Shown piece by piece: positions 14,401 to 58,250 of a DNA stretch of 64,000 bases. Source of the DNA: Patescibacteria group bacterium (GTDB lineage: Bacteria > Patescibacteriota > CPR2 > UBA1875). The DNA is taken from positions 66,658-130,657 of the forward strand of contig JBGSRK010000011.1 of NCBI GenBank assembly GCA_041737595.1. The letters are read 5' to 3'. Positions within the stretch are counted from its first letter, which is position 1, and each line of letters begins with the position of its first letter. The notes under the pieces were generated by a model. The model was not told where the DNA came from, made no database searches, and saw only the letters and a list, made by a program, of their open reading frames with translations. Both the position numbers and the translations under genes were made by a program.

Positions 14401-16496
14401 ATTCCGCGAAGAGCGGCAATCTAGCATGGCGTAATGGCGTTAACTCGTGGATTTATAAAACAGTAGATGTCCCCTTTAACACTACAATAGATTTTGACTG
14501 GAAGGTTAGTTCTGAGTCGGGTTATGATTATCTCAGCTTTTATCTAGACAACAACCAACTCAACGCAATGAGTGGCGAAATAGGTTGGACGCACTTATCA
14601 TATCCGATATCAGCGGGTTCCCACACGATAAAATGGTATTATTCTAAAGATGGTAGCGTTACATCCGAGCAGGACTCTGGTTGGATTGATAATGTCGCAA
14701 TTAGTGGGGTAGATCTTGGTCTTCTGAATGGAGACATGGTAGACAATGGTGACGGTACTTGGTCTTATGGGCCAGTAACCTTACCTGACGGTCCAAGAAG
14801 CTACACTGTAACCTGTGTTGATCAGGTCGGTAATACAACAACGACTGGATCACGAAGCCTAACAATCGACACAACCGCACCATCTATTCCTGGGACACCA
14901 ACACCAAACAGGACAGATCCTACTAAAAATCAGTGGGTAACATGGTCATGGGGCGCTTCGACCGACCTATATTCTGGCATTGACCATTATGAATGGGTTA
15001 TTCAGAAAGATAGAGTTCAGGTCGCAAGTGGGAATGTTGCCAGTGATGTTACTAATAAAAACAAGTCACTTACTTGGGGTGACGGTGAATATGTGTTCCT
15101 AGTACGTGCTGTTGATGGGCTGGGTAATACTTCTGAATACTCCTTCTCTGACCCATTAACATTAGATCAAACCTCCCCTGTTGCGCCAAGTCTTGATTGG
15201 CCATATGATCCATACTATACACAAGATCAAACGATTACCTTCGACTGGGTTTCAGTTGACGATGCATACAGATATCGCATTGAATTCTGTGCCGAGGATC
15301 CAGGTGACGCGGGTGATGTATGTAATAGTGTTATCGATGAAAAGATGGGGGTATCAAACACATACAAGACTTATACTTTTAGTTCGTCAGATATGAACGT
15401 TTGGTGGAGAGTTCGTACCCGAGATGAAGCTGGTAACCTAAGCCCATGGGGCGAATCTAGGAAGGTTGTAATCGATAACACTGCACCAGTTTCTTCGGTA
15501 GATACTCTCGCACAATATATTAATACCGAGAAATTCAATATAAATATTACCGCGAATGATCTAGCCCCAACTCTTAATATTAATAATTTAGTAAAAGCTA
15601 ATGGTCTAATAGAAAATCAAGGTAGTGGAGTAGATTATATTGAACTTTGGTACCGAAAAGATAAAACTGATGTTAATATTGCTGATCTAAGTAGATTTGC
15701 AGAGATGCCAGCAAATGGTTACACCAGATATTGTACTGGGACACCTGAGGCTGCACTTTATGCAGAAGATATTGTCGTTGATGATGGCAGTCCGTGTTAT
15801 TTTGATCCAACTCAACCTATAGAATTTGATACTACATTAACTGGTGGAGACGGTTTCTATGAGTTCTATTCAATTGCAGTCGATAATGCTGGTAATCGAG
15901 AAATAGTACCAATGACAGGTCTCCCTGGACTTTACCCATTATTAGAAGAAGGTGTAATAATAGGGGCAGAAGTTCTCCCAGATACATCTACTACTGTTGA
16001 TACTAAATCGCCCGTGATTACATTAATTGGCAACAGCCCAATGACTGTTACCCAAGGAACAATATTTACAGACCCTGGAGCATCAACAGATGATGGTACA
16101 GCAGTTGTCCAATCTGGTTCTGTAGATACTAATGTAGTTGGTTCATACTTAAGATATTATGACGCCACAGATCTTGCTGGTAATGTCGCAGATCAAGTTA
16201 CTCGAACCGTAAATGTAATAGCGGCACCAGTTCTTTTGAGCCCACTTGCTACAACAGTTGGGGGAGATACTGGTCTTACTGAAGAGGTTCTTGGGGCTAC
16301 TGACGAAAATGTAGATGGACAAGAAAAAGAAGTAAAAGGGTCAGAAGATACTAATACTGAAGATAAAAATAGTGATACTAAAACCGATGGAACATTTCTT
16401 GGTCTTATGTGGTATTGGTGGGTATTAATAGTTGCTGGGCTAGTTGGTGGATGGTGGTGGTTTGCTGCCTGGCGTAGACGTAGAGAAGAAGACTAA
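11490..16496 (+). CDS. giant (1668 aa) secreted cell-surface protein with signal peptide, repeated Ig-like/beta-rich modules and C-terminal TM anchor plus basic tail
   Basis: N-terminal signal 'LFLQMLFALLVPAMTFAAAP'; recurring 'DTTAP/DxTAP...V(T/S)D(x)AGN(V/I)S' modules; C-terminus 'WYWWVLIVAGLVGGWWWFAAWRRRREED'. Confidence 0.7.
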   Translation: MRVKEYMMKLKWLEKAKKIVSSVLFLQMLFALLVPAMTFAAAPTIFYIDKNDSAIPIFRTSDSTPTITGGVDTSATSITITINTYSCTTTPVSGGWSCDGAFITTPLTANVVYPISWVASNADGFISGTDATGVVYDTIAPVISENMPVITPTNDTTPRYEFNVDSTSAITYGGDCSSPEGQAYATRQQVDFNTLSDGLYSNCTIFVTDRAGNVSNTITVSPFTVDTTGPTLDPVGFKYATPTNTDWVGPLTGDLASGWNLDRDGNASTNYYLDFTDTTVADENIMNQYFPLYISDLVGVTAPELVVYYVNRGVPEPFLTYLTDAANNAGPFAYIKGIGSSSHPTLIDGAKHDILAIDEPMAIPGDFPEGEYTVSGVIGDVLGNASTTYDFKLIIGDITAPVISGLTTISTPSANTTPSFDFDSDEEGTLNISGSGCTVSSFSVVAGSNTFTFDSLSDGTYDCSITVTDDADNVSNSLSLDQFVVDTTAPATTYAITGGTAGNSGWYKGVTPPTITLSTESTATIHWQWESEGWNSGLTDQTPAVTEGERTIEYYSVDIATNEESPHKTATVKYDATAPTGTVVINSDATWAKSVDATLTLSASDGLSGVSQMLIANNTSYQGPFTYVPGSYAWTLNSNEGTKTVRVKYIDAAGNEMAVGTPDTIKLDTTAPRVTNLEVVDPDAGLIPYPDMDPYAVGDHMIRVRAEVYDDLGINDSGLNISSCQITVDGSNWTQFSAWYNAGKNRCVGDIPANYFSDGQLVSGFNVRVSDVAGNIGVGVGTGRIIDSLAPVLDTMTVTPRYMDTVAGTINAESVVTENPSASGVANCEQRYWLNLYDGDSSDDWSDWVTTTYADGKCQISMGGLQDGRIYQFEFRATDNVGHVSNIASSGPVLVDDIAPTVTFVDPTLADGVSTAQNSQTFKIETDSDADSCSIDLGLGSGTFEDGTLTGWTTGGTVPWVISSDAYTGSYSAKSGNLAWRNGVNSWIYKTVDVPFNTTIDFDWKVSSESGYDYLSFYLDNNQLNAMSGEIGWTHLSYPISAGSHTIKWYYSKDGSVTSEQDSGWIDNVAISGVDLGLLNGDMVDNGDGTWSYGPVTLPDGPRSYTVTCVDQVGNTTTTGSRSLTIDTTAPSIPGTPTPNRTDPTKNQWVTWSWGASTDLYSGIDHYEWVIQKDRVQVASGNVASDVTNKNKSLTWGDGEYVFLVRAVDGLGNTSEYSFSDPLTLDQTSPVAPSLDWPYDPYYTQDQTITFDWVSVDDAYRYRIEFCAEDPGDAGDVCNSVIDEKMGVSNTYKTYTFSSSDMNVWWRVRTRDEAGNLSPWGESRKVVIDNTAPVSSVDTLAQYINTEKFNINITANDLAPTLNINNLVKANGLIENQGSGVDYIELWYRKDKTDVNIADLSRFAEMPANGYTRYCTGTPEAALYAEDIVVDDGSPCYFDPTQPIEFDTTLTGGDGFYEFYSIAVDNAGNREIVPMTGLPGLYPLLEEGVIIGAEVLPDTSTTVDTKSPVITLIGNSPMTVTQGTIFTDPGASTDDGTAVVQSGSVDTNVVGSYLRYYDATDLAGNVADQVTRTVNVIAAPVLLSPLATTVGGDTGLTEEVLGATDENVDGQEKEVKGSEDTNTEDKNSDTKTDGTFLGLMWYWWVLIVAGLVGGWWWFAAWRRRREED

Positions 16497-20121: not shown

Positions 20122-21612
<1,491 letters not shown>

Positions 21613-21912
21613 TAAAGGAAATTAATGCTATATGCATTCAAATCAAGTTTGTCATTCTGAGCGGAAGCGAAGAATCTACTTGAGGGTTCCTTAGGTCGTG
21701 GATCTCGACGTTACGTTGAGATGGCTGTGCATACTTCAACACTATTCAGTTTTTAAAACACTACCTGCCAGTTGGCAGGTTTTTGTTTAGGAAATGATTG
21801 AAATTTTAGAGAAAATAAAGTAAAATTGTCAAGCAAAGTATCTTTGATATTTTTATATTAGTTAAAATATGTTAATTTTAACTCAAGAAAAAGAATGAAC
21901 TTTTTCTAATGA

Positions 21913-21989
<77 letters not shown>

Positions 21990-22007
21990 AAATAAAAGAG
22001 GGATTGT

Positions 22008-22256
22008 ATGTTACAAGCAATTTTATGGGGAGTTATATTTATAGCTTCAGGTATCGGTCTAGTTGTTTATGCAAGAAAGCTAGTTGAATGGTTTGGTACA
22101 ATGGCAACAGCTGAGAAATATCTTGGTTCGGGCGGTACTTATTCGGCCTTAAGAATAATGGGTATTTTATCAATAATTATAGGGATACTCGTAATGACTG
22201 GTTTTTTGGATGATGCACTTTTCAGTGTTGTGAAATTGTTTGGCGTTGAAAGATAG
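22008..22256 (+). CDS. small two-TM membrane protein encoded between tRNA-Ile and tRNA-Ala
   Basis: 82-aa ORF with AGAGGG RBS; hydrophobic helices. Confidence 0.4.
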   Translation: MLQAILWGVIFIASGIGLVVYARKLVEWFGTMATAEKYLGSGGTYSALRIMGILSIIIGILVMTGFLDDALFSVVKLFGVER

Positions 22257-22335
22257 TTTTTGCTAGTTTTTTTTCAGTTGGAATTAATAGATTCCAACTG
22301 CAGAGAAAGCAGAGTAGAAGAGTGAAATCCGCCGT

Positions 22336-22412
22336 GGGCCTGTAGCTCAGTTGGCTAGAGCGCCTCGCTTGCACCGAGGAGGTCGCAGGTTCGATTCCTG
22401 TCAGGTCCACCA
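22336..22412 (+). tRNA. tRNA-Ala (anticodon TGC)
   Basis: 'gggcctgtagctcagttggctagagcgcctcgcttgcaccgagg...ggttcgattcctgtcaggtccacca'; G3:U70 Ala identity pair; encoded CCA. Confidence 0.95.
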
Positions 22413-22413: not shown

Positions 22414-23922
22414 ATTACCATCAGAGTCAGAAATATGCTCTTTTATCCTGAAGGGAAGGGATAAACTGGGTGTTCCAAATCCCGTCGCCAAGGAGTATTC
22501 AGGGTTCTGAGTAAAGATCATATTGTGCAAAATGATTTTGGCTTCAGGACTGGCTTTCACCCACGTTTCAGCCGGTGTTCCGATGAATCTAAATACTAGC
22601 ATAAGAGCTTCCTGTATATCAGGGAGTTTTTTAGTTTCTGATTCTTTTTCGAATTCCCTTAATTGTCTGTCTACTTCCTCAATTTTTGTTTCATATCGGA
22701 CTCTTAGTCCTTCAGAGCGAGCCTTACGCACAAGATCAACATAGTCCTCAAGTGCCTGCTCAAGCTCCTTCTTTTCGTTTTCCTTGGCGTCATAGCCAAC
22801 ACTTAAATCCTTAACTTTTTCATCTCAAACCATTGTTGCCATAGCCATACCCATCTCAAGGACTTCTGGCCCAGCATTAATACTTTCAAGAAGTTGTATG
22901 TAATCACTCTCTAATTTAATGGGATCGATATTCTTTGGGTTAGCACTACATCCTTTATTATTACAGGTATAGTGGGGGTAGTATTTGTATTTGCCTTTAC
23001 ATACACTTCCAGTCATCTTTTTACCACAAACGGCGCAAGTGATAATTCTTCTCAAGGGAAATTCATAATTATCAGTTAATCGTGTTCTCTTTTCTGGCTT
23101 TGCTATTTTTGCCTGAATCTTATAATAGGTTTCTTCAGAGATAATAGCTTTGTGATGTCCGGGTCTTTTCGTGATTTCCCACTTATCAAACTCAATAATG
23201 CCTGCATAAAGCGGCTCTGTTAGTAATCTCTTGATAAGGTCAAAATTCACTTGCTTACTATTTCGTCCTATAAGAACATGAAAGTTCTTTGATATTAGAT
23301 AATTCATGAGATCTGTCTGACTCAATAAGCGGTTTTCTGCAAATGCATTTAATCCTTCTGATAGTACACTTGCTATAGACTTAATGGGGACAAGCAGCTT
23401 GCCGTGCTCCTTATCTTTCTGATACTCATAACCACAGGGTGCCATAAAACACCAATAACCACGCTCAATCCTTGCTTTCATTTTCTGGCAAACTTGTCTT
23501 CGGTTTTGCTTGCGTTCAAGCTGATTCTGGGCAGCAAAGATTGTTTCAACGAATTCACCCTCAGCACTGTCGTCAAAGTTATAATTCAGACATCGAAGTT
23601 TGGCTTCTCTAGCTCTTAGCTCTGACTTTAGTTTTATGTGGACTTCTACATCTCTTGCAAATCTCTTTAGGTCATCAAAAATAACAAAATACTTAGTCTG
23701 CCAGTTAATGTCTAAAAACCCGATTAATGATTGCATTGCTGGCCGATCAAATAGCCCCCCTGATATTCCCTCGTCTTTGAACACTTTTTCAACCTGTAGA
23801 CCAAGTGAGCGGGCATATTCTCTACACCTATGTTCCTGGCTATCCAAACCACTGCCTTCTCTGACTTGTTTTTCAGAGGAGACCCGGCAGTATATAACAG
23901 CTTTTGTGTAGTTTGCTTCCAT
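22414..23922 (-). pseudogene. large serine recombinase interrupted by one in-frame TGA; C-terminal coding runs into the tRNA-Ala 3' end
   Basis: N-terminal resolvase motif 'AVIYCRVSSEKQ'. ORF 22825-23922 and ORF 22222-22731 are in the same frame, separated only by TGA at 22825-22827. The tail 'NPEYSLATGFGTPSLSLPFRIKEHISDSDGN' aligns with the C-terminus of the intact paralog 37290-38906. Confidence 0.6.
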
Positions 23923-31168: not shown

Positions 31169-31837
31169 ATGAAAATCATAAAGAAGTTACGTTACGTCTG
31201 GATGCGACTCAGGTACCGTGTTCATCTACTGGTGAGGCGGATGCACGATAGATTATTCGCTAGGAAAAAGCGCTATTACAAGTTTCACCAGAAGCCGTAT
31301 GCCAAGCATGTAGTACGAGGGCTAAAGGCAATATCGGTAGTACTGATACTGGTCGGTGCTATAGGGCTGTTCAATATGTTTAAGCCAGGTAACGCTTGGG
31401 CTGCCAGTGTCTACTCTTGGACCCAAACAGACTGGACCTGTGGTGCCGATACTAGTAACTTTCCTGTACACCCCACGAACCAAGCAACATGGTGTAAATA
31501 CTTCTCGAAGGATAGCAGTGTCAGTACTAGTACAGCGGGTACGGTAACGCTAAACTCTGGCTCTAGTGCCTTCACCGACAATACTACGGCCGGCTTCAAT
31601 GCAGGGACCACGAACAATGTTGGGGTAAATGCCAATCAGGCCTTGCTTTTGAAACCTCTAGGAGCCACGGCCGCAAATGCTTGGGAGTGTGCCAGCGCGT
31701 TTGTCTCGGGAGGTGTCTGTTTTAATGCGTGGTTAACGATCACACTGAAGCGGACAGTTTCACCGATCACGTTCAAAGTCTCACTGAAATTATCTCACTT
31801 ATGGCTGAGGGACTTTCAGCCGAAGAAAAATCGGTAG
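31169..31837 (+). CDS. membrane-anchored S/T/N-rich secreted protein; true 3' end uncertain because it overlaps the VirB4 fragment
   Basis: basic N-terminus, TM 'AISVVLILVGAIGLF', then T/S/N/G-rich region. Confidence 0.3.
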   Translation: MKIIKKLRYVWMRLRYRVHLLVRRMHDRLFARKKRYYKFHQKPYAKHVVRGLKAISVVLILVGAIGLFNMFKPGNAWAASVYSWTQTDWTCGADTSNFPVHPTNQATWCKYFSKDSSVSTSTAGTVTLNSGSSAFTDNTTAGFNAGTTNNVGVNANQALLLKPLGATAANAWECASAFVSGGVCFNAWLTITLKRTVSPITFKVSLKLSHLWLRDFQPKKNR

Positions 31838-32550
31838 TTGATAGCGCCATTATTAAAACTTATCAGAAATCCGGTTTCACCAGAAGGAAGACCACTAAAA
31901 AGAACGATAAACCATATCCAAAACTAACCGATCTCTACTCGACCCTAAAAACAATGAAACAACTGAAACTTTGTCGAAGGCTTGAGAAATACACTAAAGG
32001 CTCACTGGCTGAGGTATTTGATACCCAAACCAATATAGAGCTCAATAACCGCCTGGTCGTCTTTGACACGAAAGACCTGCCAGAGTCACTCCGTCAGTTA
32101 ATGCACCTAATTATCGCTCAATATGTTCAAAACCAAGTCAAAAATGATATCTGTAAGCGCATCCTTGTCATAGATGAAGCGTGGTTAATGCTAGAGCACG
32201 AAGAAAGCGCTAGATTCATCGCTGGACTAGTTAGAAGGGCAAGAAAGTACTATCTAGGAGTCAGTATCATCTCCCAGCAAGCTAATGACTTTCTCTCAAA
32301 TAGTTATGGGAGAGCGATTGCTTCTCAAAGCGCCCTAAGAATCCTAATGCGCCAAGATACCACTACAATCAAGAACGTGGGGATTGAGTTCGGGCTTTCT
32401 GAATATGAAGAGAAGTTTCTCCTGACCTGTGAACGAGGAGAGGCTTTAATTATTGCCGATCAGCATCATGTAGCGGTTAAGGTAACAGCTTCAGAAGATG
32501 AGCATCCATTAATTACAACGGACCCCGCGGAGCTCTCAAGGGCTAAATAA
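31729..32550 (+). pseudogene. VirB4/TrbE/TraC-type conjugative ATPase, C-terminal fragment only
   Basis: Walker B region 'RILVIDEAWLMLEHEE' and 'GVSIISQQANDF' typical of the VirB4 C-terminus; N-terminal ~500 aa including Walker A absent. Confidence 0.55.
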
Positions 32551-33188
32551 TGGATCCGGCAACTATTAAAGTTATTGCCGCCGCATACTCAATGCGGAAA
32601 GAGTTAAAAACAATCTTCTTTACGCTGATTGCTCTTTTAATGATTCCAGTTGTTGGGGTTATTCTACTTACGCAAGCAGGCATAAACATTATCTCTGACT
32701 CTCTTGTTACCCAAGGCAGTAGCCAGACACCCCAGACGGTTAATGTTGACATTCATGACCCTAGAACCGGAGCGGTGATCGATAATATCACGGGGCCGGG
32801 GATGTGGCCCACTCCGGGAATTGTTACTCTAGAATTTGGACAATCAGACCTGCCATATCAAGTTTCCCACACAGGGATTGATATTGCTGATCCAATGGGA
32901 TAAGTAGGAGCACCGCTTGCAGCCTTTATGGCCGGCAAGGTAACTTATGCCGACTCAGACAATTGGGGGTATGGTACTCACGTTATTATTGACCATGGCC
33001 ACGGTGTTGTTTCGCTATATGGGCATATGGAGTCGCTGAGCGTAACAAAAGGCCAGCTAGTTGAAGCAGGGACGACAATCGGCCAGGAAGGCTCGACCGG
33101 TTGGTCAACTGGACCCCACGTTCATTTTCAAATCACAGTATTTAGTATTCCAGTTAACCCGAGGGTATTTCTGGCTGGGAATCCTTAA
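32550..33188 (+). pseudogene. M23 (LytM-type) peptidase interrupted by in-frame TAA at 32901-32903
   Basis: 'SHTGIDIADPMG*VGAPLAAFMAGKVTYAD...HVIIDHGHGVVSLYGHM' gives the HxxxD and HxH motifs split across two same-frame ORFs; N-terminal TM. Confidence 0.6.
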
Positions 33189-33302
33189 GGGTCTGATATA
33201 ATCTTTAAGAGCAGGCAGCCACAAAAGTATTGACAAAAGGCAATAAACCATGATATAGTAGCTTGTTATTGTACCTTGTAAATAAATTAGAACTACTCAC
33301 TA

Positions 33303-34082
33303 TTGGGGTGGCAAAGAGTTTATGAATTTCGTAATTTCTTTGCTGCTCCAATAAGGGAGCACCGCCGGGAGGCGGATTTGATCGAAAGGGGAGCACCCAT
33401 GAATGGGAACACCCCGGATCGCAAGTTGCTGAAGCAGATCAATGGGATTCAGTCCCGGGTGGGCAGTGCCCTCCTGAACACTGATCTCACCGCAGAGGAG
33501 GTCGCGACCTTCCCGGTCAAGAACCTCGGCGAGATTACCGCGGAAGCTGCCATGTTCATCGTTGCCCGCATCCGTGGTATAGAGCCCGGTCAGCAGGCCA
33601 ACGCAGTCATCCAGAAGAACCCCGACGGATCTATCAGTGTCGTGAAGACCGTTCGCGGTCGCTCCGATGAGGACCTCGTTGCTAGGGTCAAGGAAATGGG
33701 CTGGAATTACATCAACCCAGCCATCCGTACTGAGCGTCGCATCAAGGTCTCAGGCAAGCCCGAGATCGAGACTGGCTCTGAGCGGACTCTGACGATCGAG
33801 CAGGTTGTGCCCCAGGATTCGACTTGGAAGTTCAAGAAAGCGGTGGCCGCTACAAGGCCCACGCCTCTTGGCTTCGACCTCGAGGACATGGTCGACATGC
33901 TCGAGCACCGCGACGAACTACTAGCCCTCGGTGTTCGCTGGATCGTTGCACCTGCTGCGCGTTTCCGTAACGGCAATGGCCACGGGTGCGTCGTCTACGC
34001 GAACCTCGAGGACCGCAAGCTCTGCCTGTTTTGGGTCGGGAGCGACTGGGACGACAACGATTGGTTCGGCTCCAGCAAGTAG
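33303..34082 (+). CDS. DGR target protein (variable region at C-terminus); GC-rich (~60%)
   Basis: The 3' 126 bp equals the TR except at TR adenines. Likely start is ATG 33399 (MNGNTPDRK). C-terminus '...CVVYANLEDRKLCLFWVGSDWDDNDWFGSSK'. Confidence 0.6.
   Translation: MGWQRVYEFRNFFAAPIREHRREADLIERGAPMNGNTPDRKLLKQINGIQSRVGSALLNTDLTAEEVATFPVKNLGEITAEAAMFIVARIRGIEPGQQANAVIQKNPDGSISVVKTVRGRSDEDLVARVKEMGWNYINPAIRTERRIKVSGKPEIETGSERTLTIEQVVPQDSTWKFKKAVAATRPTPLGFDLEDMVDMLEHRDELLALGVRWIVAPAARFRNGNGHGCVVYANLEDRKLCLFWVGSDWDDNDWFGSSK
33953..34078 (+). repeat. DGR variable region (VR)
   Basis: 115/126 identical to TR; all 11 mismatches fall at TR adenines. Confidence 0.7.
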
Positions 34083-34128
34083 CTCTTTGCACCTTGGGGT
34101 CTTTGTACTTCTTAGTACTTGGACCCTT

Positions 34129-34164
34129 GTCCCGCGAAGCGGGACTCGACGCACATTTTGCGTC
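34129..34164 (+). promoter_or_regulatory. tandem GC hairpins downstream of VR (candidate DGR hairpin/cruciform)
   Basis: 'gtcccgc gaa gcgggac' and 'gacgca ttttt tgcgtc'-like inverted repeats 50-85 nt past the VR. Confidence 0.35.
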
Positions 34165-34457
34165 ACCATCTCTGCCTCTGGGCCGGTCAATCCGGCTCGG
34201 GGGCTTCTTCTTTTGTGGATAAAATGTTAGTCTTAAAGCGGAAAGTAAATTAATATGCTTGCGGTCACGGCTACAAGCGATTGAAATCTGGGATAACAAA
34301 CTCCGGAATGGCGATAGATACGTCTTTTGCTAGTGTGAGCTGTTACTCTCTAATAGATAAAGATACTTGGTGCAAGATACTGGTGGGAAATCCCCCAGAT
34401 AAAATACAGCCCAGAGAGAATTCAATGGGCAGTGGAACAGATGGTATTTTGTGCAAT

Positions 34458-34583
34458 TTGCTGCGCGTTTCCGTAACGACAATGGCAACGAGTGCGTCGT
34501 CTACGCGAACCTCGAGAACCGCAAGCTCAACCTGAATTGGGTCGAGAACGACTGGAACGACAACGATTGGTTCGGCTCCAGCA
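34458..34583 (+). repeat. DGR template region (TR)
   Basis: Asn-codon (AAC/AAT)-rich non-coding copy of the VR; A at every VR-variable position. Confidence 0.7.
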
Positions 34584-34590
34584 ACTATCT

Positions 34591-34989
34591 TTATTTAAGG
34601 GGTGGGGCTAGACAGGTTTTTATCTGTTTGGCCCAGCCACCGAGCATGCGTCCGACTTCATCTAGTTGCTCCGAGATGGCAGCATATTTTTTGTTATCTA
34701 ACGCCTTTATTTCCCAAGCAATCCTTAGAAAAAACTTCACAAGGTCAAGTTTAACCCCTGCTTCAAATACTTGTTCGTATTTTTGATCTCCTCTCAAGTG
34801 AGAAGCGTTAAAGGTTAATTCGATTACTATGAGAAGCGCCGAATCGATATTTGCTCCAAGCGAGTACCTTGAGGTTTTAGGAAAGTTAACAAGAAGTTCT
34901 TGCCACGATTTGTATGCCTTAACTTGTTTTTGAATTACTGGGAGATCTATGCTGGAATTTGTTTTTTCCTTATGAAAATTGCTTTGCAT
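34591..34989 (-). CDS. avd: Avd-like accessory variability determinant (four-helix-bundle / 23S rRNA-IVS protein family)
   Basis: 132 aa; C-terminal 'SEQLDEVGRMLGGWAKQIK' resembles BPP-1 Avd 'AEVGRILGSWIARV'; adjacent to RT and TR. Confidence 0.65.
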   Translation of the reverse strand: MQSNFHKEKTNSSIDLPVIQKQVKAYKSWQELLVNFPKTSRYSLGANIDSALLIVIELTFNASHLRGDQKYEQVFEAGVKLDLVKFFLRIAWEIKALDNKKYAAISEQLDEVGRMLGGWAKQIKTCLAPPLK

Positions 34990-35979
34990 GATATTTACTC
35001 CAAAGTTATAAGTGTTGATAATCTCCTTGAGGCGTGGAAGGAATTTCGAGTTCGCAAGTCAAACAAACCGGATGTGCAAGAGTTTGAAGTCAAACTGATA
35101 GATGATATTTTAGCATTGCATCGGTCTTTAATGCAAAGTAGATATAAGCATGGCGGGTACAAAGAATTTGTCATACACGATCCAAAGCAAAGGTTAATTC
35201 ACAAAGCTATCGTGCGCGACCGGCTACTGCATCACGCTGTTTTTCGAGTTTTGTATCCATTTTTTGATAAAACATTTATTTGCGATTCATACTCATCAAG
35301 AAAAGGCAAAGGCACACATAAGGCCGTTCAGAGATTCAGGGTATTTATTAACAAGGTCAGCATTAACAACACTAAAACATGTTGGGTCTTAAAATGTGAT
35401 ATCAAGAAGTTCTTTGCTAGTATTGATCATTCAGTTTTGATTGAAATACTCAAAGGTTACATTGATGACGACAAAACCATGCGCTTGCTCACCGAAATTA
35501 TCTCCAGCTATAACTCCGCGGAAAATATCGGACTACCCCTAGGTAATCTAACGTCTCAGTTGCTTGTGAATATTTACATGAATGAGTTCGATCAATTTAT
35601 GAAGCATAAGATGAAGGTAAAATATTATGTCCGTTATGCTGACGATTTTGTTATTTTGTCTGATGATGAGGATTATTTGCTACAACTTAAACAAACCATC
35701 GGGAACTTCTTAGGGATGCATCTAATGCTTGAGCTTCACCCAAAGAAAACCGTAATCAGAACCGTTGCTTCAGGTGTTGATTTTCTGGGCTATGTTGTTT
35801 TTCCAAAATTTATAGTACTTAGAACGGAGACAAAAAGACGAATGCTAAAGAAGGTCTCAAAACGGAATATAGACTCTTACCACGGAATCATGAAGCATTG
35901 TAACGGATACGGCTTAGAGCAAAAAGTCAGAAAGATTGTGGATAATCAAGAACTCCAAGAGAGAGGCCCAAAGACGTAA
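34972..35979 (+). CDS. DGR-type reverse transcriptase
   Basis: N-terminus 'VISVDNLLEAWKEFRVRKSNK', 'LKCDIKKFFASIDH', DGR-like motif 4 'LPLGNLTSQLLVNIYMNEF' (SQ rather than the group II QGxxxSP), 'YVRYADDFVIL'. No maturase/X domain. The track ORF starts at 34900. Confidence 0.8.
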   Translation: MKIALHDIYSKVISVDNLLEAWKEFRVRKSNKPDVQEFEVKLIDDILALHRSLMQSRYKHGGYKEFVIHDPKQRLIHKAIVRDRLLHHAVFRVLYPFFDKTFICDSYSSRKGKGTHKAVQRFRVFINKVSINNTKTCWVLKCDIKKFFASIDHSVLIEILKGYIDDDKTMRLLTEIISSYNSAENIGLPLGNLTSQLLVNIYMNEFDQFMKHKMKVKYYVRYADDFVILSDDEDYLLQLKQTIGNFLGMHLMLELHPKKTVIRTVASGVDFLGYVVFPKFIVLRTETKRRMLKKVSKRNIDSYHGIMKHCNGYGLEQKVRKIVDNQELQERGPKT

Positions 35980-36000: not shown

Positions 36001-36363
36001 TTACTGATCGATTAGGCCTTTAATCTCGTCGTTGATTCTAACCTTCTCAAGCATGATTGCCGTAAGCAATGACTTTTCTGCTTCAAGGTAGGCCTGTTTC
36101 ATGGTTACGTCTTTACCGCACTTCTTCTCAAGGAATTCTTGTGCCTCTTTCGCCATATTTCTAGTAACGCCATTCTTTTCGTACTCTTTCTCGACTGTAA
36201 GCCAATATCCTAATCCGTTTCTTAAAGTAGCGTACTTAACCGCATCAGTTTTTGTTAGTTCCTTGCCGAACTTTACCTTAAACTCGTTTGTCGCTTTTAC
36301 GATTTCTTCTTCGGTCGGTTTGGGTAATTGAGGTTTTAAATTTGTAATTTCTTGTTCTTTCAT
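36001..36363 (-). CDS. hypothetical protein
   Basis: 120-aa K/E-rich ORF with GGAAGAG RBS. Confidence 0.35.
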   Translation of the reverse strand: MKEQEITNLKPQLPKPTEEEIVKATNEFKVKFGKELTKTDAVKYATLRNGLGYWLTVEKEYEKNGVTRNMAKEAQEFLEKKCGKDVTMKQAYLEAEKSLLTAIMLEKVRINDEIKGLIDQ

Positions 36364-36372
36364 GACTCTTCC

Positions 36373-37005
36373 TTACCTTAATATTACATCCACAATATTA
36401 AACACAGCCAGAATACTTTTCAACAGTACTATCATAACTTGAAAAATAGCCGTAAGCGACCATCTAATAGCAAAAGCTACTGGTTCAATCAGAAATATTT
36501 TGATCTTTTGTCTGAAATCTAGTTTTAGATTATGAGGTTGGCTCATGAGTTTGTATCCGTTTATCAGTTTTTGATTCAGAGTTAAGTTTGACAAAACTTG
36601 AGCAGTGAAATCCTCGTCTGCTATCCTTATCATAAGTTCCTTACTTCTTTTTTGGGAAAGAATGTTGAGACTACCTTCCCAAAGGATTTTACGATCTATC
36701 ATGGCCACTTTTTCATGAATGGAACCGTCGATATATGTAATGTGAGCTCCAAGTTTTTTGTAAATCTGAATTGCTGTTCTGATCTCATCTTGAACATATT
36801 CTTCATGTTCTAAAACTGGGCGAGTGAATATAAAGACATGGACATTTTTCCGTTTAAGTTTAAGTAGGGCCCTCCTAAAGAAATCAGCCCTATATTGACT
36901 TATAAAGGGACTATAAATAATAACTTCTTTTTCGGCATTTAACATATCTTTAATCAAAGCGGGGTAAAAAGTAACTTCGTTATATAGGGTGCTTGTTTGA
37001 TCCAT
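36373..37005 (-). CDS. PLD-family (HKD) nuclease-like protein
   Basis: single HKD motif 'HEKVAMIDRKILWEGSLN' (HxK(x)4D(x)6GSxN); hydrophobic C-terminus. Confidence 0.5.
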   Translation of the reverse strand: MDQTSTLYNEVTFYPALIKDMLNAEKEVIIYSPFISQYRADFFRRALLKLKRKNVHVFIFTRPVLEHEEYVQDEIRTAIQIYKKLGAHITYIDGSIHEKVAMIDRKILWEGSLNILSQKRSKELMIRIADEDFTAQVLSNLTLNQKLINGYKLMSQPHNLKLDFRQKIKIFLIEPVAFAIRWSLTAIFQVMIVLLKSILAVFNIVDVILR

Positions 37006-37056
37006 GTTTTCTCCTTTGTTTATTTAATCTAGAAGTTTTTATTATAATTTGATAGA

Positions 37057-37284
37057 ATGATGCTTGTTATGGTAAGTAAAGATGAAAAACCTTTTATAAA
37101 ACTTGGGAACCAGCTCAAGAAGGCGAGAGAAGACGCTATGCTTAGTCAATCCGAGCTAGCGAAGAAATCCGGAGTAAGTCCTAATTACTACGCCGTAGTT
37201 GAGCGAGGTGAGGGTAATCTCTCTTATGAAAAACTACAGCGTATTCTAAAGGTACTTAAAATTAAATCACTTGACGTCAATTAA
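37057..37284 (+). CDS. XRE-family helix-turn-helix transcriptional regulator
   Basis: 'LSQSELAKKSGVSPNYYAVVERGEGNLSYEKLQRILKVL'. Confidence 0.6.
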   Translation: MMLVMVSKDEKPFIKLGNQLKKAREDAMLSQSELAKKSGVSPNYYAVVERGEGNLSYEKLQRILKVLKIKSLDVN

Positions 37285-37289
37285 TCGTC

Positions 37290-38906
37290 TTAGCAATCTG
37301 GGTTATCTAGAGAATCGTAAATAATCCTTAATTTTGGCTCCCACTCTAGAGCAATTTTGACAAAGGTGTTCCAATATTTCTGGTTACGGTCCACCATAGA
37401 AAATTTATTCAGCCCGATGTCCCTGTTTATCGCATAGATAAGCCCTAAAGTGAAGGTTCCAAAACCTTCGCTTTTTTGGTAGGAAATTCCGTTTGGAAAT
37501 ACTAACTTTTGGAACCGAGGCTTGATAACATCTGGCATATCTTGCCATTGTCTTCCCATATCTGTAATAAACTGTCTGGCATAGTCTAGTGCTGTTTCTA
37601 GGTCATATTGTTCAATGCGAGCTTCGCTTAGAGATACCTTGGTAGCAACGATTTCATTCTCAACCTCGGCTTTTCTCTCTAGGAATTCTTCCTTATCGTA
37701 AGAACCATCTTCCCGCATCTCTTTTACTCGCTTAAGCTTGGCCTTAAGCCCCTCTAGAGCTTTCTCCACCCTTTCTGCTTCCTGCTCGTAGCTTTTACCC
37801 TTTTCTTTCCATACGTCAAGCACAGTGGCTTTGAATAGATTTAGGAACTTATCGTTTGGGGTAATTTCTGCAAGCAGCTCAATAAAGTCTTTTTCAAGCT
37901 CATCCTTCTTAATTGATTTGCCGTAGAGTGCGCAACTCTTGGTATAGCAGTGATAGTTTGAATAGATTCCCCCGTGACCACGTGAATTACTTCCCGTTAA
38001 TGGCTTACCACATTCTGAGCAAAGAACGGTCTTTCTCAGAGAGAATTGAGGATTGTAACGCTGTCTCTTCGCCTGTACTCTATTCCCGCTTAATATGTAG
38101 TTGATTGTATCCATTTCATCTTTTGTTATCATCGGTTTATGTTTTCCACGTATCTCCTCACCAGTCCACGGGTTTACGATTATACCTGCATAAAAATGCA
38201 AACTTTTATGAAGAATCCGATAGGCAAGGGAGGAAGTGGCTTCTTTACCATTAATAGATTTGTAACCAAGACTGTTAAGCTTTCTCGCTATCTCAGATTG
38301 AGAATAGATTCCTTTAGCAAATTCCTTCAAAGCAGTTTGTATAATCGGGAACAGTTCTTTATCAGGTGGTGATGGCATTGTCATCTTTTCACCGTGTTTT
38401 TTAGCGTTTAGGCACCTGTATCCTAATGGTGGCTTCCACGGGTATAGTCCTTGGTTAATCCTTGAACTCATCCCTTCACTACACATCTTTTTCCGAATAC
38501 CATTATCGTATTCAGCAATTGCGGCTAAAACAGCCTCCATTAGTTTTCCGCTGGTGCTGTCATCAATCATTGGCTCTTCTACACAGTGAAGGGTTATCCC
38601 ATAACCAGTTAGAATTTTCTTCACTGCATAGTGGTCTTCTAAATTACGAGCGAATCTGTTCACGCGTAGAACAGTGAAGACATCAATAGTATCTTTGTTC
38701 TTTCTACAAAATTCTAGGGCTTCTAGAAAGGCTTCTCTGTTATTCTTATCTAAGCTCTTTGCGCTTTCGCCTTTTTCAATAAAAACTTTTATTACATCAA
38801 TATTCTTCTGCTTACAATAACGCCTGCAGTAATCCTCTTGGTGCTCTAGGCTAGTGCCTTTGACTTGTTCGCCAGAGCTGACTCTTGTGTAAATTATACC
38901 TTTCAT
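37290..38906 (-). CDS. large serine recombinase (integrase)
   Basis: 'GIIYTRVSSGEQ' resolvase catalytic-Ser region, recombinase and zinc-ribbon Cys region, coiled-coil tail; 538 aa, intact. Confidence 0.8.
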   Translation of the reverse strand: MKGIIYTRVSSGEQVKGTSLEHQEDYCRRYCKQKNIDVIKVFIEKGESAKSLDKNNREAFLEALEFCRKNKDTIDVFTVLRVNRFARNLEDHYAVKKILTGYGITLHCVEEPMIDDSTSGKLMEAVLAAIAEYDNGIRKKMCSEGMSSRINQGLYPWKPPLGYRCLNAKKHGEKMTMPSPPDKELFPIIQTALKEFAKGIYSQSEIARKLNSLGYKSINGKEATSSLAYRILHKSLHFYAGIIVNPWTGEEIRGKHKPMITKDEMDTINYILSGNRVQAKRQRYNPQFSLRKTVLCSECGKPLTGSNSRGHGGIYSNYHCYTKSCALYGKSIKKDELEKDFIELLAEITPNDKFLNLFKATVLDVWKEKGKSYEQEAERVEKALEGLKAKLKRVKEMREDGSYDKEEFLERKAEVENEIVATKVSLSEARIEQYDLETALDYARQFITDMGRQWQDMPDVIKPRFQKLVFPNGISYQKSEGFGTFTLGLIYAINRDIGLNKFSMVDRNQKYWNTFVKIALEWEPKLRIIYDSLDNPDC

Positions 38907-41706: not shown

Positions 41707-42765
41707 ATGACAGTAATGAAAACACCAAGCTTATTTAATAAGATTGAGGAAAAATCAGGGGATTTTACATTTATTGACCTTTTCGCAGGCATCGGAGGGA
41801 TTCGGCTTGGCTTTGAACAAAACGGTGGTGAATGTGTTTACTCATCAGAATGGGATAAATTTGCGCAACTAACATATCAGGCTAATTTTCAAGAATTGCC
41901 AAGTGGTGACATTACAAAAATAGACCCGAAAGTAATTCCTCCTTTTGATGTGCTAATGGCTGGTTTTCCTTGCCAACCATTCTCTATGGCCGGTAAGAAA
42001 CGAGGGTTTGAAGATACTCGAGGAACAATGTTCTTTTATATCGCTAAGATTATTGAGAAACACAAGCCTAAAGCTATTTTACTTGAGAATGTAAAAAACT
42101 TCAGGTCTCACGATAAAGGAAATACATTAAAGACCGTGGTGAGTGTTCTTGAAGACCTAGGATATTCAATCCAGTACAAGGTTCTAAATGCCAAGGATTT
42201 TGGGGTACCTCAGAACAGAGAAAGAATCTATATAGTAGGGTTTAGGGGCAAGACAAATTTCGAGTTTCCTGAGTCAGTGGGAACAGTGACAAGACTTGGA
42301 GATATTCTTGAAAATAATGTTGACTCTAAGTACACCATATCTGATAAACTCTGGGCGGGACATCAGAGAAGAAAGGAAATGCATAAAATCAAAGGTAACG
42401 GTTTTGGGTACTCCCTTTTTAATGAGGACAGTGTTTATACAAGTACTATTTCTGCTAGGTATTATAAGGATGGTTCAGAAATTCTGATTGAACAAAAGGG
42501 TAAGAATCCAAGAAAGCTCACCCCAAGAGAGGCTGGGAGGCTACAGGGGTTCCCAGATAGCTACCTGATACCAGTAAGCGATAATCAGGCTTATAAACAA
42601 TTCGGTAATAGTGTGGCTGTCCCAGTTATTAATGCAGTTGCTTGTAATATGGTAAAGGGAATGAATGATTTGGCTGAGTCAAAGAATAAAGCCCGTATAA
42701 GCGCGGTTGATATAGATGCTATTATGGTTAACAAGGCGGAAGGTGATGTTTGCTATGAAAATTAA
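41707..42765 (+). CDS. dcm: DNA (cytosine-5)-methyltransferase
   Basis: motif I 'FIDLFAGIGGIRLGF', motif IV 'GFPCQPFS', 'ENV' motif VI, 'QFGNSVAVPVI' motif X. Confidence 0.85.
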   Translation: MTVMKTPSLFNKIEEKSGDFTFIDLFAGIGGIRLGFEQNGGECVYSSEWDKFAQLTYQANFQELPSGDITKIDPKVIPPFDVLMAGFPCQPFSMAGKKRGFEDTRGTMFFYIAKIIEKHKPKAILLENVKNFRSHDKGNTLKTVVSVLEDLGYSIQYKVLNAKDFGVPQNRERIYIVGFRGKTNFEFPESVGTVTRLGDILENNVDSKYTISDKLWAGHQRRKEMHKIKGNGFGYSLFNEDSVYTSTISARYYKDGSEILIEQKGKNPRKLTPREAGRLQGFPDSYLIPVSDNQAYKQFGNSVAVPVINAVACNMVKGMNDLAESKNKARISAVDIDAIMVNKAEGDVCYEN

Positions 42766-46385: not shown

Positions 46386-46519
46386 CTTTTAAATTCAAAA
46401 TTAAGAGAGAATGTGTTAATATTTATATAGAAAATTGAATATTCGCCTAACCCTTGTGACTCGTCATAAGGTATGGCATAAAAATCCGTTCAAAGTATAA
46501 AGCTCTTCGTCAGAGCACT

Positions 46520-47074
46520 TTGAACGGTCGTGTCCCGAAAGGGATGTGGGTGACTTCGGTCATCGCTGGCGGGGAGCTTTTTGATACTCCGTACAAAGGA
46601 GAACTTGTGAAATCATTTTGTGTAAAATGCGATAAGCAACAGGAAATGCTGAACGTAAAAGACAAATACTACCCGAAAGTTGGAAAGCCTGGTTTTGAGG
46701 GTATATGTTTGATTTGTGGTAGGAAATTGTATAGAGTAGGTTCTGAAAAGGAAATAAAGAAAGACGATATTGAGAGTCAATATAGCAAGATAGAGGAAAT
46801 AAAGAATACTTGTATGGCTTGTAAAAATGTATGGTTTTATGGAGTAAATGAAAAGCCTAAGGAGTTAAGTATTTCAGACAAGCTTCATAATTTATCGGTG
46901 TCGTATGAGAATACAGCAAAAACTGGCTTAGCAATTACTGGATTTTTACCAGCTTTTTTACTCCCTGACAAAGAAAAAAGGAAAGCGCCAGAAAACCCAG
47001 ATAGAAGTAGGTGCCCTAAATGTGGCTCAAAAGCAATAAAGACTAAAAAGGTTGTCCATAAGTTTAAGAAATAG
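46520..47074 (+). CDS. multi-zinc-ribbon protein
   Basis: 'CVKCDKQQ', 'CLICGRK', 'CMACKNVW', 'CPKCGSK' CxxC pairs. Confidence 0.35.
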   Translation: MNGRVPKGMWVTSVIAGGELFDTPYKGELVKSFCVKCDKQQEMLNVKDKYYPKVGKPGFEGICLICGRKLYRVGSEKEIKKDDIESQYSKIEEIKNTCMACKNVWFYGVNEKPKELSISDKLHNLSVSYENTAKTGLAITGFLPAFLLPDKEKRKAPENPDRSRCPKCGSKAIKTKKVVHKFKK

Positions 47075-54856: not shown

Positions 54857-55809
54857 ATTAATAATTCGAGAGTTCAAAAGAAGAAAAACTTAATTGAGCT
54901 CTGGAGTAATTGTGTAGAGTAAAGAATAATTAATCTGATATTCTGTATTTTTTATCTCAAATAATTATGGAGTTTCAGAAACTTAACAACTTAATAAAAG
55001 AAGGCAATTCAAAGCTTTAGATTAGTTATCTAAAGAAATCAAATTCTAATCCCAATTGAATTTGCAAGTATGAATTGCCGGTTAAGGGTAGAGTCGAGTC
55101 GTTGCAACTACGTTGCACCGAAATTCTAAAATCTTAATTCTAAATTATAAAAAAAATACTAAATTTAAATGTTTAAAGCATTAAGATTTAAAAATTATTT
55201 AAGATTTAAAAATTTAAAATTAGAGTTTCCGTGCAGCGTAGCTACACGGTTTGGCTCTTGCAATAAAACTAAATATTACGAGATTAAGTTGGGTAAGAGC
55301 ATATGATGGATGCCTTGGCGGCATAAGCCGAAGAAGGACGCGATAGGCTGCGATAAGCCTCGGGGAGCTGTCTAATAAGCTGTGATCCGGGGATTTCCGA
55401 ATGGGGCAACCCGATTGGATTCATCTCCAATCAACCATATCTGAATACATAGGATATGAGTAGGGCACTCGGTGAACTGAAACATCTAAGTAGCCGAAGG
55501 AAAAGAAAACAATAGTGAACGCCTTAGTAGTGGTGAGCGAACGGGCGCGAGTCGAAACTTTTTACATGTTAAAGCTTACAGGCGTTGTGTAAAAGGAGTT
55601 GTGAGGTAGATCGTCACTGAAACTTTGTTTCAGTGGGCTGAGATCAAAGAGTTGGATCTTTCCAATTCTCCGATTTCAGAAGTGTGGGCTGTAAACTACA
55701 CATAAGGTAAAAAAATAAAAGAATTAATAGAACGAGCCTGGAAAGGACGACCATAGAGGGTGATAGTCCCGTAAATGAAAATTCTTTTGTCCTTATAGAT
55801 TTATTCTCT

Positions 55810-55843
<34 letters not shown>

Positions 55844-55879
55844 CGGGAGGACCACCTCCCAAGACTAAATACTTATGTC

Positions 55880-55913
<34 letters not shown>

Positions 55914-56095
55914 AAAAAGAACCCCTGTTAGGGGAGTGAAATAGAACCTGAAATCATATGCTTACTAGGTGTAGGAGCGGATTTATTCCGTGACTGCGTG
56001 CCTTTTGTAGAATGAGCCAACGAGTTATCGTAACAAGCAAGGTTAAGTAGTTTAAAGCTACGGAGCCGAAGGGAAACCGAGTCTTAATAGGGCGT

Positions 56096-56256
56096 GGGCT
56101 ACTTCCCATTGAGTAAAATACTTTGTGAACGCATAGCACCAGTTCTGGCAAAGTGAAAATTTTTCGACGTATTCACAATACGTTTTAAAGTTTTCACAAA
56201 GTCATAACTAGGCGATCTGTGCCCACAAGTGCATTTTATCCAGTGGGAAGTAGCCA
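56096..56256 (+). other. 23S intervening/expansion sequence at the helix-25 site
   Basis: ~160 nt closed by the long stem 'gggctacttcccattg ... cagtgggaagtagcc' where standard 23S has ~10 nt. Confidence 0.5.
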
Positions 56257-57975: not shown

Positions 57976-58006
57976 ACCAGTTTCCGGTGTTGGAACAGTG
58001 TCTGGT

Positions 58007-58052
<46 letters not shown>

Positions 58053-58213: not shown

Positions 58214-58250
<37 letters not shown>

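Follow-up and report, generated by a model that had tools for sequence, protein, structure and literature searches.

An apparently intact CPR diversity-generating retroelement with B3 architecture and the conserved structured leader that precedes its TR

The closest described relatives of the locus reported here are the diversity-generating retroelements (DGRs) of CPR bacteria and the DGR of Bordetella phage BPP-1. Among CPR DGRs, 90% have the B3 architecture, with the gene order target-TR-(avd)-RT (Wu et al. 2018, PMC5758913). DGR clade 2 is confined to CPR, and the targets of its members have no recognisable domains (Roux et al. 2021, PMC8144416). The BPP-1 element is arranged as mtd-avd-TR-brt, and a 140-nt RNA element, Sp, is located 3' of TR, between TR and brt (Handa et al., bioRxiv 10.1101/2023.10.23.563531; RT-10 motif, Weinberg 2017, PMC5737381). 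In addition, phage DGRs carry a hairpin/cruciform with a GRNA tetraloop 4-34 bp from VR (Guo 2011, PMC3240598).

The window analysed here, a stretch of 64,000 nt from a contig of a Patescibacteria group bacterium (JBGSRK010000011.1), contains a locus that is very probably an intact DGR of the CPR-specific B3 architecture, composed of target, TR, opposite-strand avd and reverse transcriptase (RT). All features examined as marks of a DGR were found, namely TR/VR differences confined to A, a DGR-type RT, a C-terminal VR, Avd and an IMH-like boundary, and the cassette is real and apparently intact. Its TR-(avd)-RT order, the reverse-strand avd and the Patescibacteria host place it in B3/clade 2. 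Like the CPR B3 DGRs it has the same gene order and orientation, overlapping 5' ends of avd and RT, a short target without recognisable domain, signal peptide or transmembrane segment, A-specific mutation and an RT of about 60% identity; it differs from them in being carried on a conjugative-element remnant, not in an ordinary chromosomal context, and in its very small target family. The DGR call of the initial annotation was supported, and every refutation check that could be run favoured it. This is the standard CPR B3 type (PMC5758913; clade 2, PMC8144416). The DGR itself is one further example of a type already common in CPR bacteria, and hence not rare. Its components are as follows.

33230..33259, plus strand: promoter-like site TTGACA-18-TATAGT, with TG, upstream of the target (consensus scan 11/12; a pattern match only)
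33399..34082, plus strand: DGR target gene, 227 aa; residues 1-65 low-confidence helical, about 70-227 a predicted C-type-lectin-like domain
33953..34078, plus strand: VR, 115/126 identical to TR, with 11 differences, all at TR adenines
34051..34078, plus strand: IMH-like 3' end of VR, 28 nt equal to TR with unmutated A's included, ending in a clade-invariant GCAA
34459..34584, plus strand: TR, with 33 A, an A-free third codon position and 12 AAY codons
34591..34989, minus strand: avd, accessory variability determinant, 132 aa (PF22296 bAvd, NF033474)
34972..35979, plus strand: DGR reverse transcriptase, 335 aa (RVT_1 1e-25; best solved-structure match 8ub7_A, 5.7e-42)

The cassette is carried by a degraded integrative conjugative element that adjoins tRNA-Ala in a Patescibacteria chromosome. 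The host's housekeeping genes are Patescibacteria-like, and the relatives of its MurD are from Patescibacteria. A decayed element had been proposed as the setting, and this is borne out by the upstream genes: only the C-terminal 276 residues of VirB4 are left, and an in-frame TAA interrupts the gene for the M23 peptidase at 32901-32903. Both are intact in L001, a related locus that is also syntenic with the genes on the other side of the cassette.

31729-32550, plus strand: VirB4/TraG-type ATPase fragment, decayed, directly upstream
32550-33188, plus strand: M23 peptidase with an in-frame stop, decayed
within 36001..38906, minus strand: 120-aa ORF and PLD-like nuclease of the element, syntenic with L001
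37057-37284, plus strand: HTH protein, syntenic with L001
37290-38906, minus strand: large serine recombinase, syntenic with L001

The TR/VR pair carries the signature of adenine mutagenesis. VR, which forms the last 42 codons of the target ORF, matches TR at 115 of 126 positions in an ungapped comparison at an offset of 506, the identity initially reported; the position of TR had been given one nucleotide off (34458-34583), and the corresponding offset of 505 yields only 32/126. Tabulation of the mismatches reproduced the earlier result: all 11 are changes from A in TR to G (seven), T (three) or C (one) in VR, with none at a non-A position of TR, and the probability that 11 random differences would all land on A is 9.5e-8. 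All 11 fall at codon positions 1 or 2, and the adenines of TR are distributed over the three codon positions as 13, 20 and 0. At the 3' boundary, the 28-nt block is identical although A's are present, and the final 26 nt of VR/TR occur exactly twice in the window, in VR and TR, against 0 expected. Sequence entropy in the 24-member target family reaches 2.62 bits at A-templated codons, compared with 1.21 bits at those free of A (p = 1e-6), a family-wide rather than read-level proxy for VR variability. The same layout, with its own TR/VR pair mismatched wholly or mainly at A, was found at seven related loci: L001 (11/11 mismatches at A), L006 (24/24), L008 (16/16), L009 (11/11), L010 (6/8), L014 (25/26) and L016 (23/23).

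For the RT, an ORF of 335-359 aa had been proposed, and the start at ATG 34972 gives the lower figure; this start overlaps that of avd by 18 nt, as it does in related loci. The motifs LGNLTSQ ([I/L]GxxxSQ) and YADD are present and a maturase domain is absent, as originally described. Against the Bordetella phage DGR RT (PDB 8ub7) the RT reaches 147 bits, and against group II intron and retron RTs at most 67 bits, which agrees with the DGR assignment, one made from motifs and solved-structure scores. Catalytic and adenine-mutagenesis residues are retained, with equivalents of bRT K29, F66, R74, I76, D138, I181 (here L), Q187 and D215/D216. Identity is 35-40% to phage DGR RTs and about 60% to thousands of Patescibacteria RTs. 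The divergent 132-aa ORF was correctly taken for Avd: it matches PF22296 (5.1e-17; 62.7 bits, cutoff 40) and NF033474 (1.4e-21; 76.7 bits, slightly below the 80-bit cutoff), and a PDB sequence search with it gave no match.

For the target, ATG 33399 is the most likely start, not TTG 33303 as first annotated, because its homologues and database protein P0001 begin there. Its family is small: 1.84 billion proteins yielded about 29 clusters when grouped at 50% identity. A related-locus search with 10 target sequences re-found only the L001 contig, and a genome scan returned fragments in one Ca. Howlettbacteria MAG, plus L006. An HMM search gave no Pfam or NCBIfam match, so the target is not recognisable by HMM as CLec/DUF1566, and its CLec likeness lies only in the predicted fold. 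The target was modelled confidently as a divergent C-type-lectin fold; the model came from AF2 with a 24-sequence alignment, and AF2 with 5 sequences only gave a pLDDT of 46. The predicted fold had no significant Foldseek match in PDB or BFVD, the target profile had no match in a PDB sequence search, and tblastn against phage genomes found none. As in Mtd, TvpA (PDB 2y3c), archaeal AvpA and TaqVP, VR is predicted to form the C-terminal strands of the CLec-like domain, and as in DGR variable proteins of this fold, scaffold residues come from A-free codons and variable ones from AAY or A-containing codons. A surface role is not evident, because inspection found neither a signal peptide nor a transmembrane segment. 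The position of the target behind VirB4 and M23 raised the possibility of a T4SS adhesin, which is not supported as a general role, since the same family occurs with the same DGR in ordinary chromosomal contexts at L006 and L009. The GC content of the target is high; A-to-N erosion was dismissed as the cause, as T is depleted along with A and the depletion also reaches beyond VR.

Downstream of VR, four stem-loops were found 19-126 nt past its end, where three hairpins at 40-85 nt had been noted previously. Folding of the region as a whole gives a z-score of -6.05, and the conserved hairpins follow VR only.

34097..34126, plus strand: hairpin 1, from RNAalifold on 4 loci; here and in hairpin 2 the stems show compensatory changes
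34129..34145, plus strand: hairpin 2, GTCCCGC-GAA-GCGGGAC, with C-G replaced by T-A in L001 and L009
34148..34165, plus strand: extra, window-specific hairpin, missing from L001 and L009
34174..34204, plus strand: intrinsic terminator of the target gene, a 13-bp stem followed by a T-run, kept in L001 and L009

By analogy with the element of Guo et al. 2011 (PMC3240598), hairpin 2 is a candidate target-recognition hairpin/cruciform: both have a GC-rich 7-bp stem downstream of VR, conserved in structure, not in sequence. Hairpin 2, however, is located 51 nt from VR (versus 4-34), has a 3-nt GAA loop in place of the GRNA tetraloop, and comes after another conserved hairpin that is richer in AT. 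This geometry lies outside the phage DGR pattern and was counted against the DGR explanation.

Between the target terminator and TR lies a structured leader of roughly 200 nt, a clade-level property and, as far as Rfam 15 and the searchable papers show, the sole feature of the locus for which no published description was found. Its elements and those just past TR are listed below.

34251..34256, plus strand: near-invariant TAATAT on the 5' border of the conserved block; perhaps the -10 box for transcription of the template RNA
34257..34454, plus strand: structured leader of the DGR RNA, kept in nine loci
34257-34264/34271-34278, plus strand: P1
34299-34303/34337-34341, plus strand: P3
34309-34318/34323-34332, plus strand: P4
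34355-34363, plus strand: P5, 5' strand; its 3' strand, 34588-34596, is in the TR tail
34364-34370, plus strand: invariant UACUUGG
34370-34381/34443-34454, plus strand: P6, enclosing P7 and P8
34385-34388/34392-34395, plus strand: P7
34409-34417/34422-34430, plus strand: P8
34586..34597, plus strand: 3' tail of the TR RNA, pairing with the leader; overlaps the avd stop codon
34599..34641, plus strand: strong stem-loop directly past the tail (-28.4 kcal/mol, z -4.17), inside the avd 3' coding region; possibly an Avd-binding or terminator-like hairpin

The leader is conserved in all nine distinct loci compared (nhmmer E 1e-31 to 1e-59), and the copy in this locus scores 195 bits, on par with any relative. 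Across its helices 97.1% of cells are paired, versus 43-49% in slid controls, and 36 of 54 pairs show compensatory changes, versus 8-12; none of 500 shuffles reached the observed values. P5 joins the leader to the far side of TR: the tail is complementary at 12/12 positions to 34354-34365, uniquely the best site in the leader, and five of the nine P5 pairs show compensatory changes, while in more distant loci 9-10/12 positions are complementary and other sites tie. The end of P6 lies 4-7 nt before the start of TR/VR homology. A conserved structure on the minus strand, as a 3' UTR of avd, was rejected, since several invariant G·U pairs would turn into C·A mismatches. Covariance models of the Rfam RT-associated motifs (RT-1 to RT-19, including RT-10) gave no match in the window at E<=10 or in six related loci at E<=1, and a scan of viral contigs with the leader motif returned 0 matches.

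Comparison with BPP-1 suggests what the leader may do. The two systems have homologous RT and Avd proteins, a C-terminal VR and A-unmutated 3' homology, and differ in that avd is co-oriented in BPP-1, whereas here it is antisense and immediately 3' of TR. The structured RNA here is 5' of TR, relatives end their RNA about 15-40 nt past TR, and Rfam RT-10 matches the BPP-1 Sp and not this locus. A long downstream Sp as in BPP-1 is unlikely, since antisense avd follows and five relatives have a terminator-like hairpin, with a U-run, at the same place past the tail. In both RNAs, two neighbouring duplexes form on one continuous non-template strand with TR looped out. Here the 5'-P5a-UACUUGG-P6a-3' strand of the leader forms its first duplex with the tail 3' of TR and its second with the sequence directly 5' of TR, so that TR is looped out between P5 and P6, an arrangement that reproduces the template:primer-duplex and stop-duplex geometry of the BPP-1 cryo-EM structure. 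The leader may therefore be a permuted equivalent of Sp, and it is quite possible, though proposed tentatively and by analogy, that the template RNA of B3-type (CPR) DGRs corresponds to the Bordetella phage DGR RNA in circularly permuted form, with the scaffold for protein binding and priming, equivalent to Sp, 5' of TR. Should the analogy be right, the RT would begin the cDNA opposite position 34581, the invariant G of GCAA, and would stop at P6, a few nucleotides before the start of TR/VR homology.

On the model of the Bordetella phage element, a plus-strand RNA from about 34257 would comprise the folded leader of about 200 nt, the 126-nt TR and the short 3' tail. RT and Avd would copy TR into cDNA, misincorporating opposite template adenines, and the cDNA would replace the 42 codons at the 3' end of the target gene, a recipient site marked by the A-unmutated 28-nt 3' homology and the conserved hairpins just downstream. 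The outcome would be variation of up to 21 codons on the C-type-lectin-like binding domain of the 227-aa protein. The RNA ends, priming site and ligand in this scheme are putative, as is the current activity of the DGR.

Other explanations of the locus differ in how well they account for these data. That it is a chance or decaying duplication beside a group II intron or retron RT is effectively refuted: the top NCBIfam match of the RT is indeed a group II RT/maturase model (150 bits), NCBIfam apparently having no DGR-RT model, but this is far under the 300-bit cutoff of that model, the RT has no maturase domain, and its best solved relative is the Bordetella DGR RT. Mismatches at A only (P about 1e-7), the presence of Avd and the recurrence of the cassette elsewhere with independent A-biased VRs also oppose it. 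A fossil DGR, which diversified VR in the past but has since become inactive on the dying mobile element that carries it, leaving VR frozen, would fit the truncated or stop-bearing conjugation genes nearby and the 11/33 adenines that differ here, below several relatives (24/30 in L006, 25/33 in L014). We consider it improbable, given that the protein components are all full-length with catalytic residues intact, the leader matches any relative in score, TR keeps its A-free third positions and AAY codons, and the target has an open frame flanked by a promoter-like site and a terminator.

The leader could also act outside the reverse-transcription machinery. It might be a 5' UTR that regulates or stabilises the TR transcript, a small RNA in its own right, or an element at the 3' end of the target mRNA. 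Its role in priming is drawn from analogy, the proposed UUG:CAA contact consists of invariant bases and so has no covariation support, and P5 is imperfect in distant loci, with tying sites. These points leave a role outside that machinery conceivable but rather unlikely, because the leader is contiguous with TR in 9/9 loci even with unrelated targets, a terminator lies between it and the target gene, and compensatory changes support P5 as a link to the 3' flank of TR. The distance from P6 to TR/VR homology also matches the Bordetella stop-duplex geometry, and several relatives terminate the RNA straight after the tail, leaving no downstream Sp.

The locus adds incrementally to the known CPR DGRs, and its rare target family is now open to modelling; it also shows that conjugative elements can carry such DGRs, which is likewise useful but incremental. 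The leader may have wider meaning. If it is the scaffold of the template RNA, the phage RNP logic of two adjacent duplexes and a looped-out template would be kept under a different RNA connectivity, and preserved in the largest environmental DGR clade. A minimal RNA of about 34257-34641 would then be defined for reconstitution of a CPR DGR, and a sequence-plus-structure signature would be available to find B3 TRs in fragmentary metagenomes. The position of the leader also suggests that surveys confined to the 40 nt before and the 100 nt after TR would miss the main RNA element of this clade.

The variable repeat (VR) at 33953-34078 and the template repeat (TR) at 34459-34584 are identical at 115 of 126 positions in an ungapped comparison with an offset of 506. 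The repeat described in the initial annotation is therefore real, but its register was 1 nt off, as an offset of 505 leaves only 32/126 identities. All 11 differences fall on TR adenines, as had been claimed, with G (seven), T (three) or C (one) in the VR; the probability that 11 random differences would all fall on A is 9.5e-8. These differences all lie at codon position 1 or 2, where the 33 TR adenines themselves are found (13 and 20, respectively, and none at position 3), and the TR contains 12 AAY codons. The 3' 28 nt of the VR match the TR exactly, adenines within notwithstanding, and end in GCAA, which is invariant clade-wide. The 64 kb hold exactly two copies of the final 26 nt of the repeat, so the window contains one VR and one TR. 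The cassette of this diversity-generating retroelement (DGR) runs target (+), TR (+), avd (-) and reverse transcriptase (RT) (+), with the genes placed as follows.

33399-34082, plus strand: target gene, ATG at 33399, 227 aa
34591-34989, minus strand: avd
34972-35979, plus strand: DGR RT, preferred start, 335 aa

The target begins at ATG 33399 in its homologues and in its database protein (P0001), not at 33303 as initially annotated. No Pfam or NCBIfam model matched the target protein. A search of 5.8 billion sequences found five relatives; in a set of 1.84 billion representatives the family amounts to 29 clusters (50% identity), some of them spurious ORFs reading through TRs. Across the family, mean entropy is 2.62 bits at A-containing TR codons versus 1.21 at A-free ones (p = 1e-6), and the near-invariant residues of the scaffold, R188, F189, G194, C197, V198, L203, R206, L210, W217, F223 and G224, all come from A-free codons.

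The divergent ORF proposed as Avd-like matches Pfam bAvd (5e-17) and NCBIfam DivGenRetAVD (1.4e-21), the latter at 76.7 bits, slightly below the 80-bit cutoff. The start of the RT overlaps that of avd by 18 nt, likewise in related loci. Among solved structures, the top match to the RT is chain A of PDB 8ub7 (5.7e-42, 147 bits), which contains IGSLTSQ; group II intron and retron RTs reach at most 67 bits, which bears out the assignment to the DGR type. The window RT keeps the equivalents of bRT K29, F66, R74, I76, D138, I181 (here L), Q187 and D215/D216, residues that act in catalysis, template contact or dNTP contact according to the cryo-EM preprint on the Bordetella phage bRT-Avd-RNA complex, which describes 8ub7 chain A (bioRxiv 10.1101/2023.10.23.563531). 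Neither a maturase domain, whose absence had been noted, nor an endonuclease domain was found in the RT ORF. Thousands of relatives at ~60% identity exist in a large protein database, the named ones being Parcubacteria or Patescibacteria, and phage DGR RTs are 35-40% identical. The NCBI-derived database protein of the RT (P0006) has 282 aa, 84% of the 335-aa ORF; judging from homologues, which start at ATG 34972, its start was probably set too far downstream.

The same gene order and overlapping avd/RT starts occur in every related locus fetched: L001/L002 (a JGI metagenome contig), L006 (MAG DS4.bin43), L008 (complete genome CP066687, its RT named by NCBI as Ca. Giovannonibacteria), L009, L010, L014 and L016. 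Each has its own TR/VR pair, with mismatches wholly or mainly at A (L001 11/11, L006 24/24, L008 16/16, L009 11/11, L010 6/8, L014 25/26, L016 23/23). L006 also carries a second target paralog (3215-3793), whose VR (~3614-3736) differs from the TR by a 1-nt indel and has, in its 3' half, 13/13 mismatches at TR adenines; it looks like a DGR-diversified but frameshifted copy. In all eight loci (the window, L001, L006, L008, L009, L010, L014 and L016) the target is far richer in GC than avd/RT, outside the VR too, although weakly so in L010; in the window (33399-34082 versus 34591-35979) GC3 is 0.72 versus 0.40 and overall GC 59% versus 37.5%. Erosion of A to N was ruled out as the cause, since A and T are both depleted.

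The order TR-(avd)-RT is that of the B3 architecture, which makes up 90% of the CPR DGRs and is almost missing elsewhere (Wu et al. 2018, PMC5758913). DGR clade 2 is restricted to Patescibacteria, with targets that typically lack recognisable domains or transmembrane segments (Roux et al. 2021, PMC8144416). GyrA, rRNA genes, PurF-like and MurD mark the window as chromosomal, and its MurD relatives belong to Patescibacteria, Paceibacterota and Wolfebacteria. The DGR is therefore a typical representative of a class that is both known and abundant. The initial annotation was thus correct in observation and interpretation apart from small coordinate errors, but rated too highly an element of a well-known kind.

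L001 preserves the intact form of the carrier element: T4SS pilins, PrgI, TraC-like, a 588-aa VirB4 and a 205-aa M23 peptidase, then the DGR (target, Avd, RT), then a 123-aa ORF, a PLD-like protein, an HTH protein and a serine recombinase. Over the target-to-RT block, the window and L001 share 73% DNA identity, but the window VirB4 is reduced to residues 313-588, its M23 gene is interrupted in frame by a TAA (32901-32903), and genes for pilins, PrgI and TraC are missing, in agreement with the decay reported earlier. Upstream, a second serine recombinase abuts tRNA-Ala and is accompanied by a T4 coupling protein as well as Replic_Relax and Fic proteins. This gene content indicates that the DGR is cargo of a degraded integrative conjugative element. 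No conjugation role was assigned to the target, since L006 and L009 have the same target family and DGR in ordinary chromosomal settings. Downstream of the RT, at 36001-37284 and likewise in L001/L002, come a 120-aa ORF (-), a PLD-like nuclease (-) and a small HTH protein; absent after the RT in chromosomal B3 DGRs, they are mobile-element genes, not DGR genes.

Elsewhere in the window, the rRNA genes are split, with 16S, tRNA-Ile and tRNA-Ala 33 kb from 23S and 5S (20124-22412 and 55283-58992), and a serine recombinase directly past tRNA-Ala (22825-23922, -) marks the start of mobile DNA. At 3396 nt, the 23S match exceeds its 2925-nt model by insertions amounting to ~470 nt. A LOOT RNA (Rfam RF03000, 90 bits) lies at 46444-46564 (+), flanked by a DUF4238 gene and a 184-aa ORF; a C5 cytosine methylase (41707-42765) is located upstream of it. 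At 11490-16496 (+), a stretch of 40-46% GC in surroundings of roughly 30% encodes a 1668-aa protein with bacterial Ig-like and cadherin-like domains, which may be a surface adhesin or part of a second island.

Past the VR there are four stem-loops (z = -6.05) rather than the three hairpins counted initially. The third is specific to the window, the fourth is an intrinsic terminator, and the first two show compensatory changes in 5/18 pairs among the four closest loci.

34097-34126: post-VR stem-loop 1, conserved in the four closest loci
34129-34145: post-VR stem-loop 2, conserved in the four closest loci

In Bordetella, efficient homing requires a GC-rich hairpin/cruciform just 3' of the VR (PMC3240598). 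Stem-loop 2 of the window can reasonably be regarded as a putative analogue, although it differs in distance (51 nt) and loop (GAA). By eye, repeated CTTRG/CTTGA-like pentamers are seen within the first 40-60 nt past the target stop (window 34083-34130; L006, L008, L010), throughout the clade and even where the target is unrelated.

When six loci were aligned, the ~230 nt between target terminator and TR proved unexpectedly strongly conserved, and this conservation extends to L008 and L010, whose targets are unrelated. A profile of this leader finds one plus-strand copy directly 5' of the TR in every B3 locus fetched (E 1e-28 to 1e-59). RNAalifold, run on nine loci aligned over the leader and the 3' flank of the TR, gives 56 predicted pairs; compensatory double changes occur in 36. 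In a 54-pair structure, the share of paired cells is 97.1% versus 43-49% in controls with partners slid by 1-3 columns, with 36 versus 8-12 compensated pairs and a covariation score of 0.70 versus 0.14-0.19; none of 500 shuffles reached the observed values. The structure is on the plus strand, because several G·U pairs are invariant.

34257-34264 / 34271-34278, plus strand: helix P1
34299-34303 / 34337-34341, plus strand: P3
34309-34318 / 34323-34332, plus strand: P4
34355-34363 / 34588-34596, plus strand: P5
34364-34370, plus strand: invariant UACUUGG, unpaired linker
34370-34381 / 34443-34454, plus strand: P6
34385-34388 / 34392-34395, plus strand: P7, inside P6
34409-34417 / 34422-34430, plus strand: P8, inside P6
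34599-34641: strong stem-loop past the tail, within the avd 3' coding region

P5 brackets the TR, since its 3' strand is the tail directly after the TR. In the window's subfamily, no other leader site complements the tail as well as the P5 segment does (12/12, 12/12, 11/12, 11/12), with compensation in L006. P6 ends 4-7 nt before the TR/VR homology, and five relatives have a hairpin and U-run directly past the tail. Rfam, including motifs RT-1 to RT-19, gave no match to the leader at permissive thresholds in the window and six relatives, and no published description was found in the literature searched, which did not include Paul et al. 2017.

In the Bordetella RNP, the Sp RNA 3' of the TR carries the strands of two neighbouring duplexes: the template:primer duplex consists of Sp47-56 and the 3' part of the TR, with priming from Sp A56 and TR G117 as first template base, and Sp59-70 forms the 'cPRT Stop' with a segment 5' of the TR; between the duplexes the TR loops out, and the cDNA ends 4-8 nt before the stop duplex (bioRxiv 10.1101/2023.10.23.563531). 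The B3 leader similarly offers P5a, pairing with the tail, a short linker, and P6a, pairing with the segment just 5' of the TR, although its strand sits 5' of the TR whereas Sp sits 3'. By this analogy, we put the chance that the leader functions as a permuted counterpart of Sp at slightly less than even. The UUG of UACUUGG could pair with the CAA of the invariant GCAA, extending P5, which would make G34581 the first template base; these bases are invariant and so lend no covariation support. Its chief rival is a leader that stabilises or regulates and has no part in priming.

The survey by Handa et al. took in just 40 nt on the 5' side and 100 nt on the 3' side of TRs (bioRxiv 10.1101/2023.10.23.563531), a span that would miss P5a and most of the leader structure. 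This undescribed leader bracketing the TR is the part of the element worth following, and it is a property of the whole B3 clade, not of the window alone.
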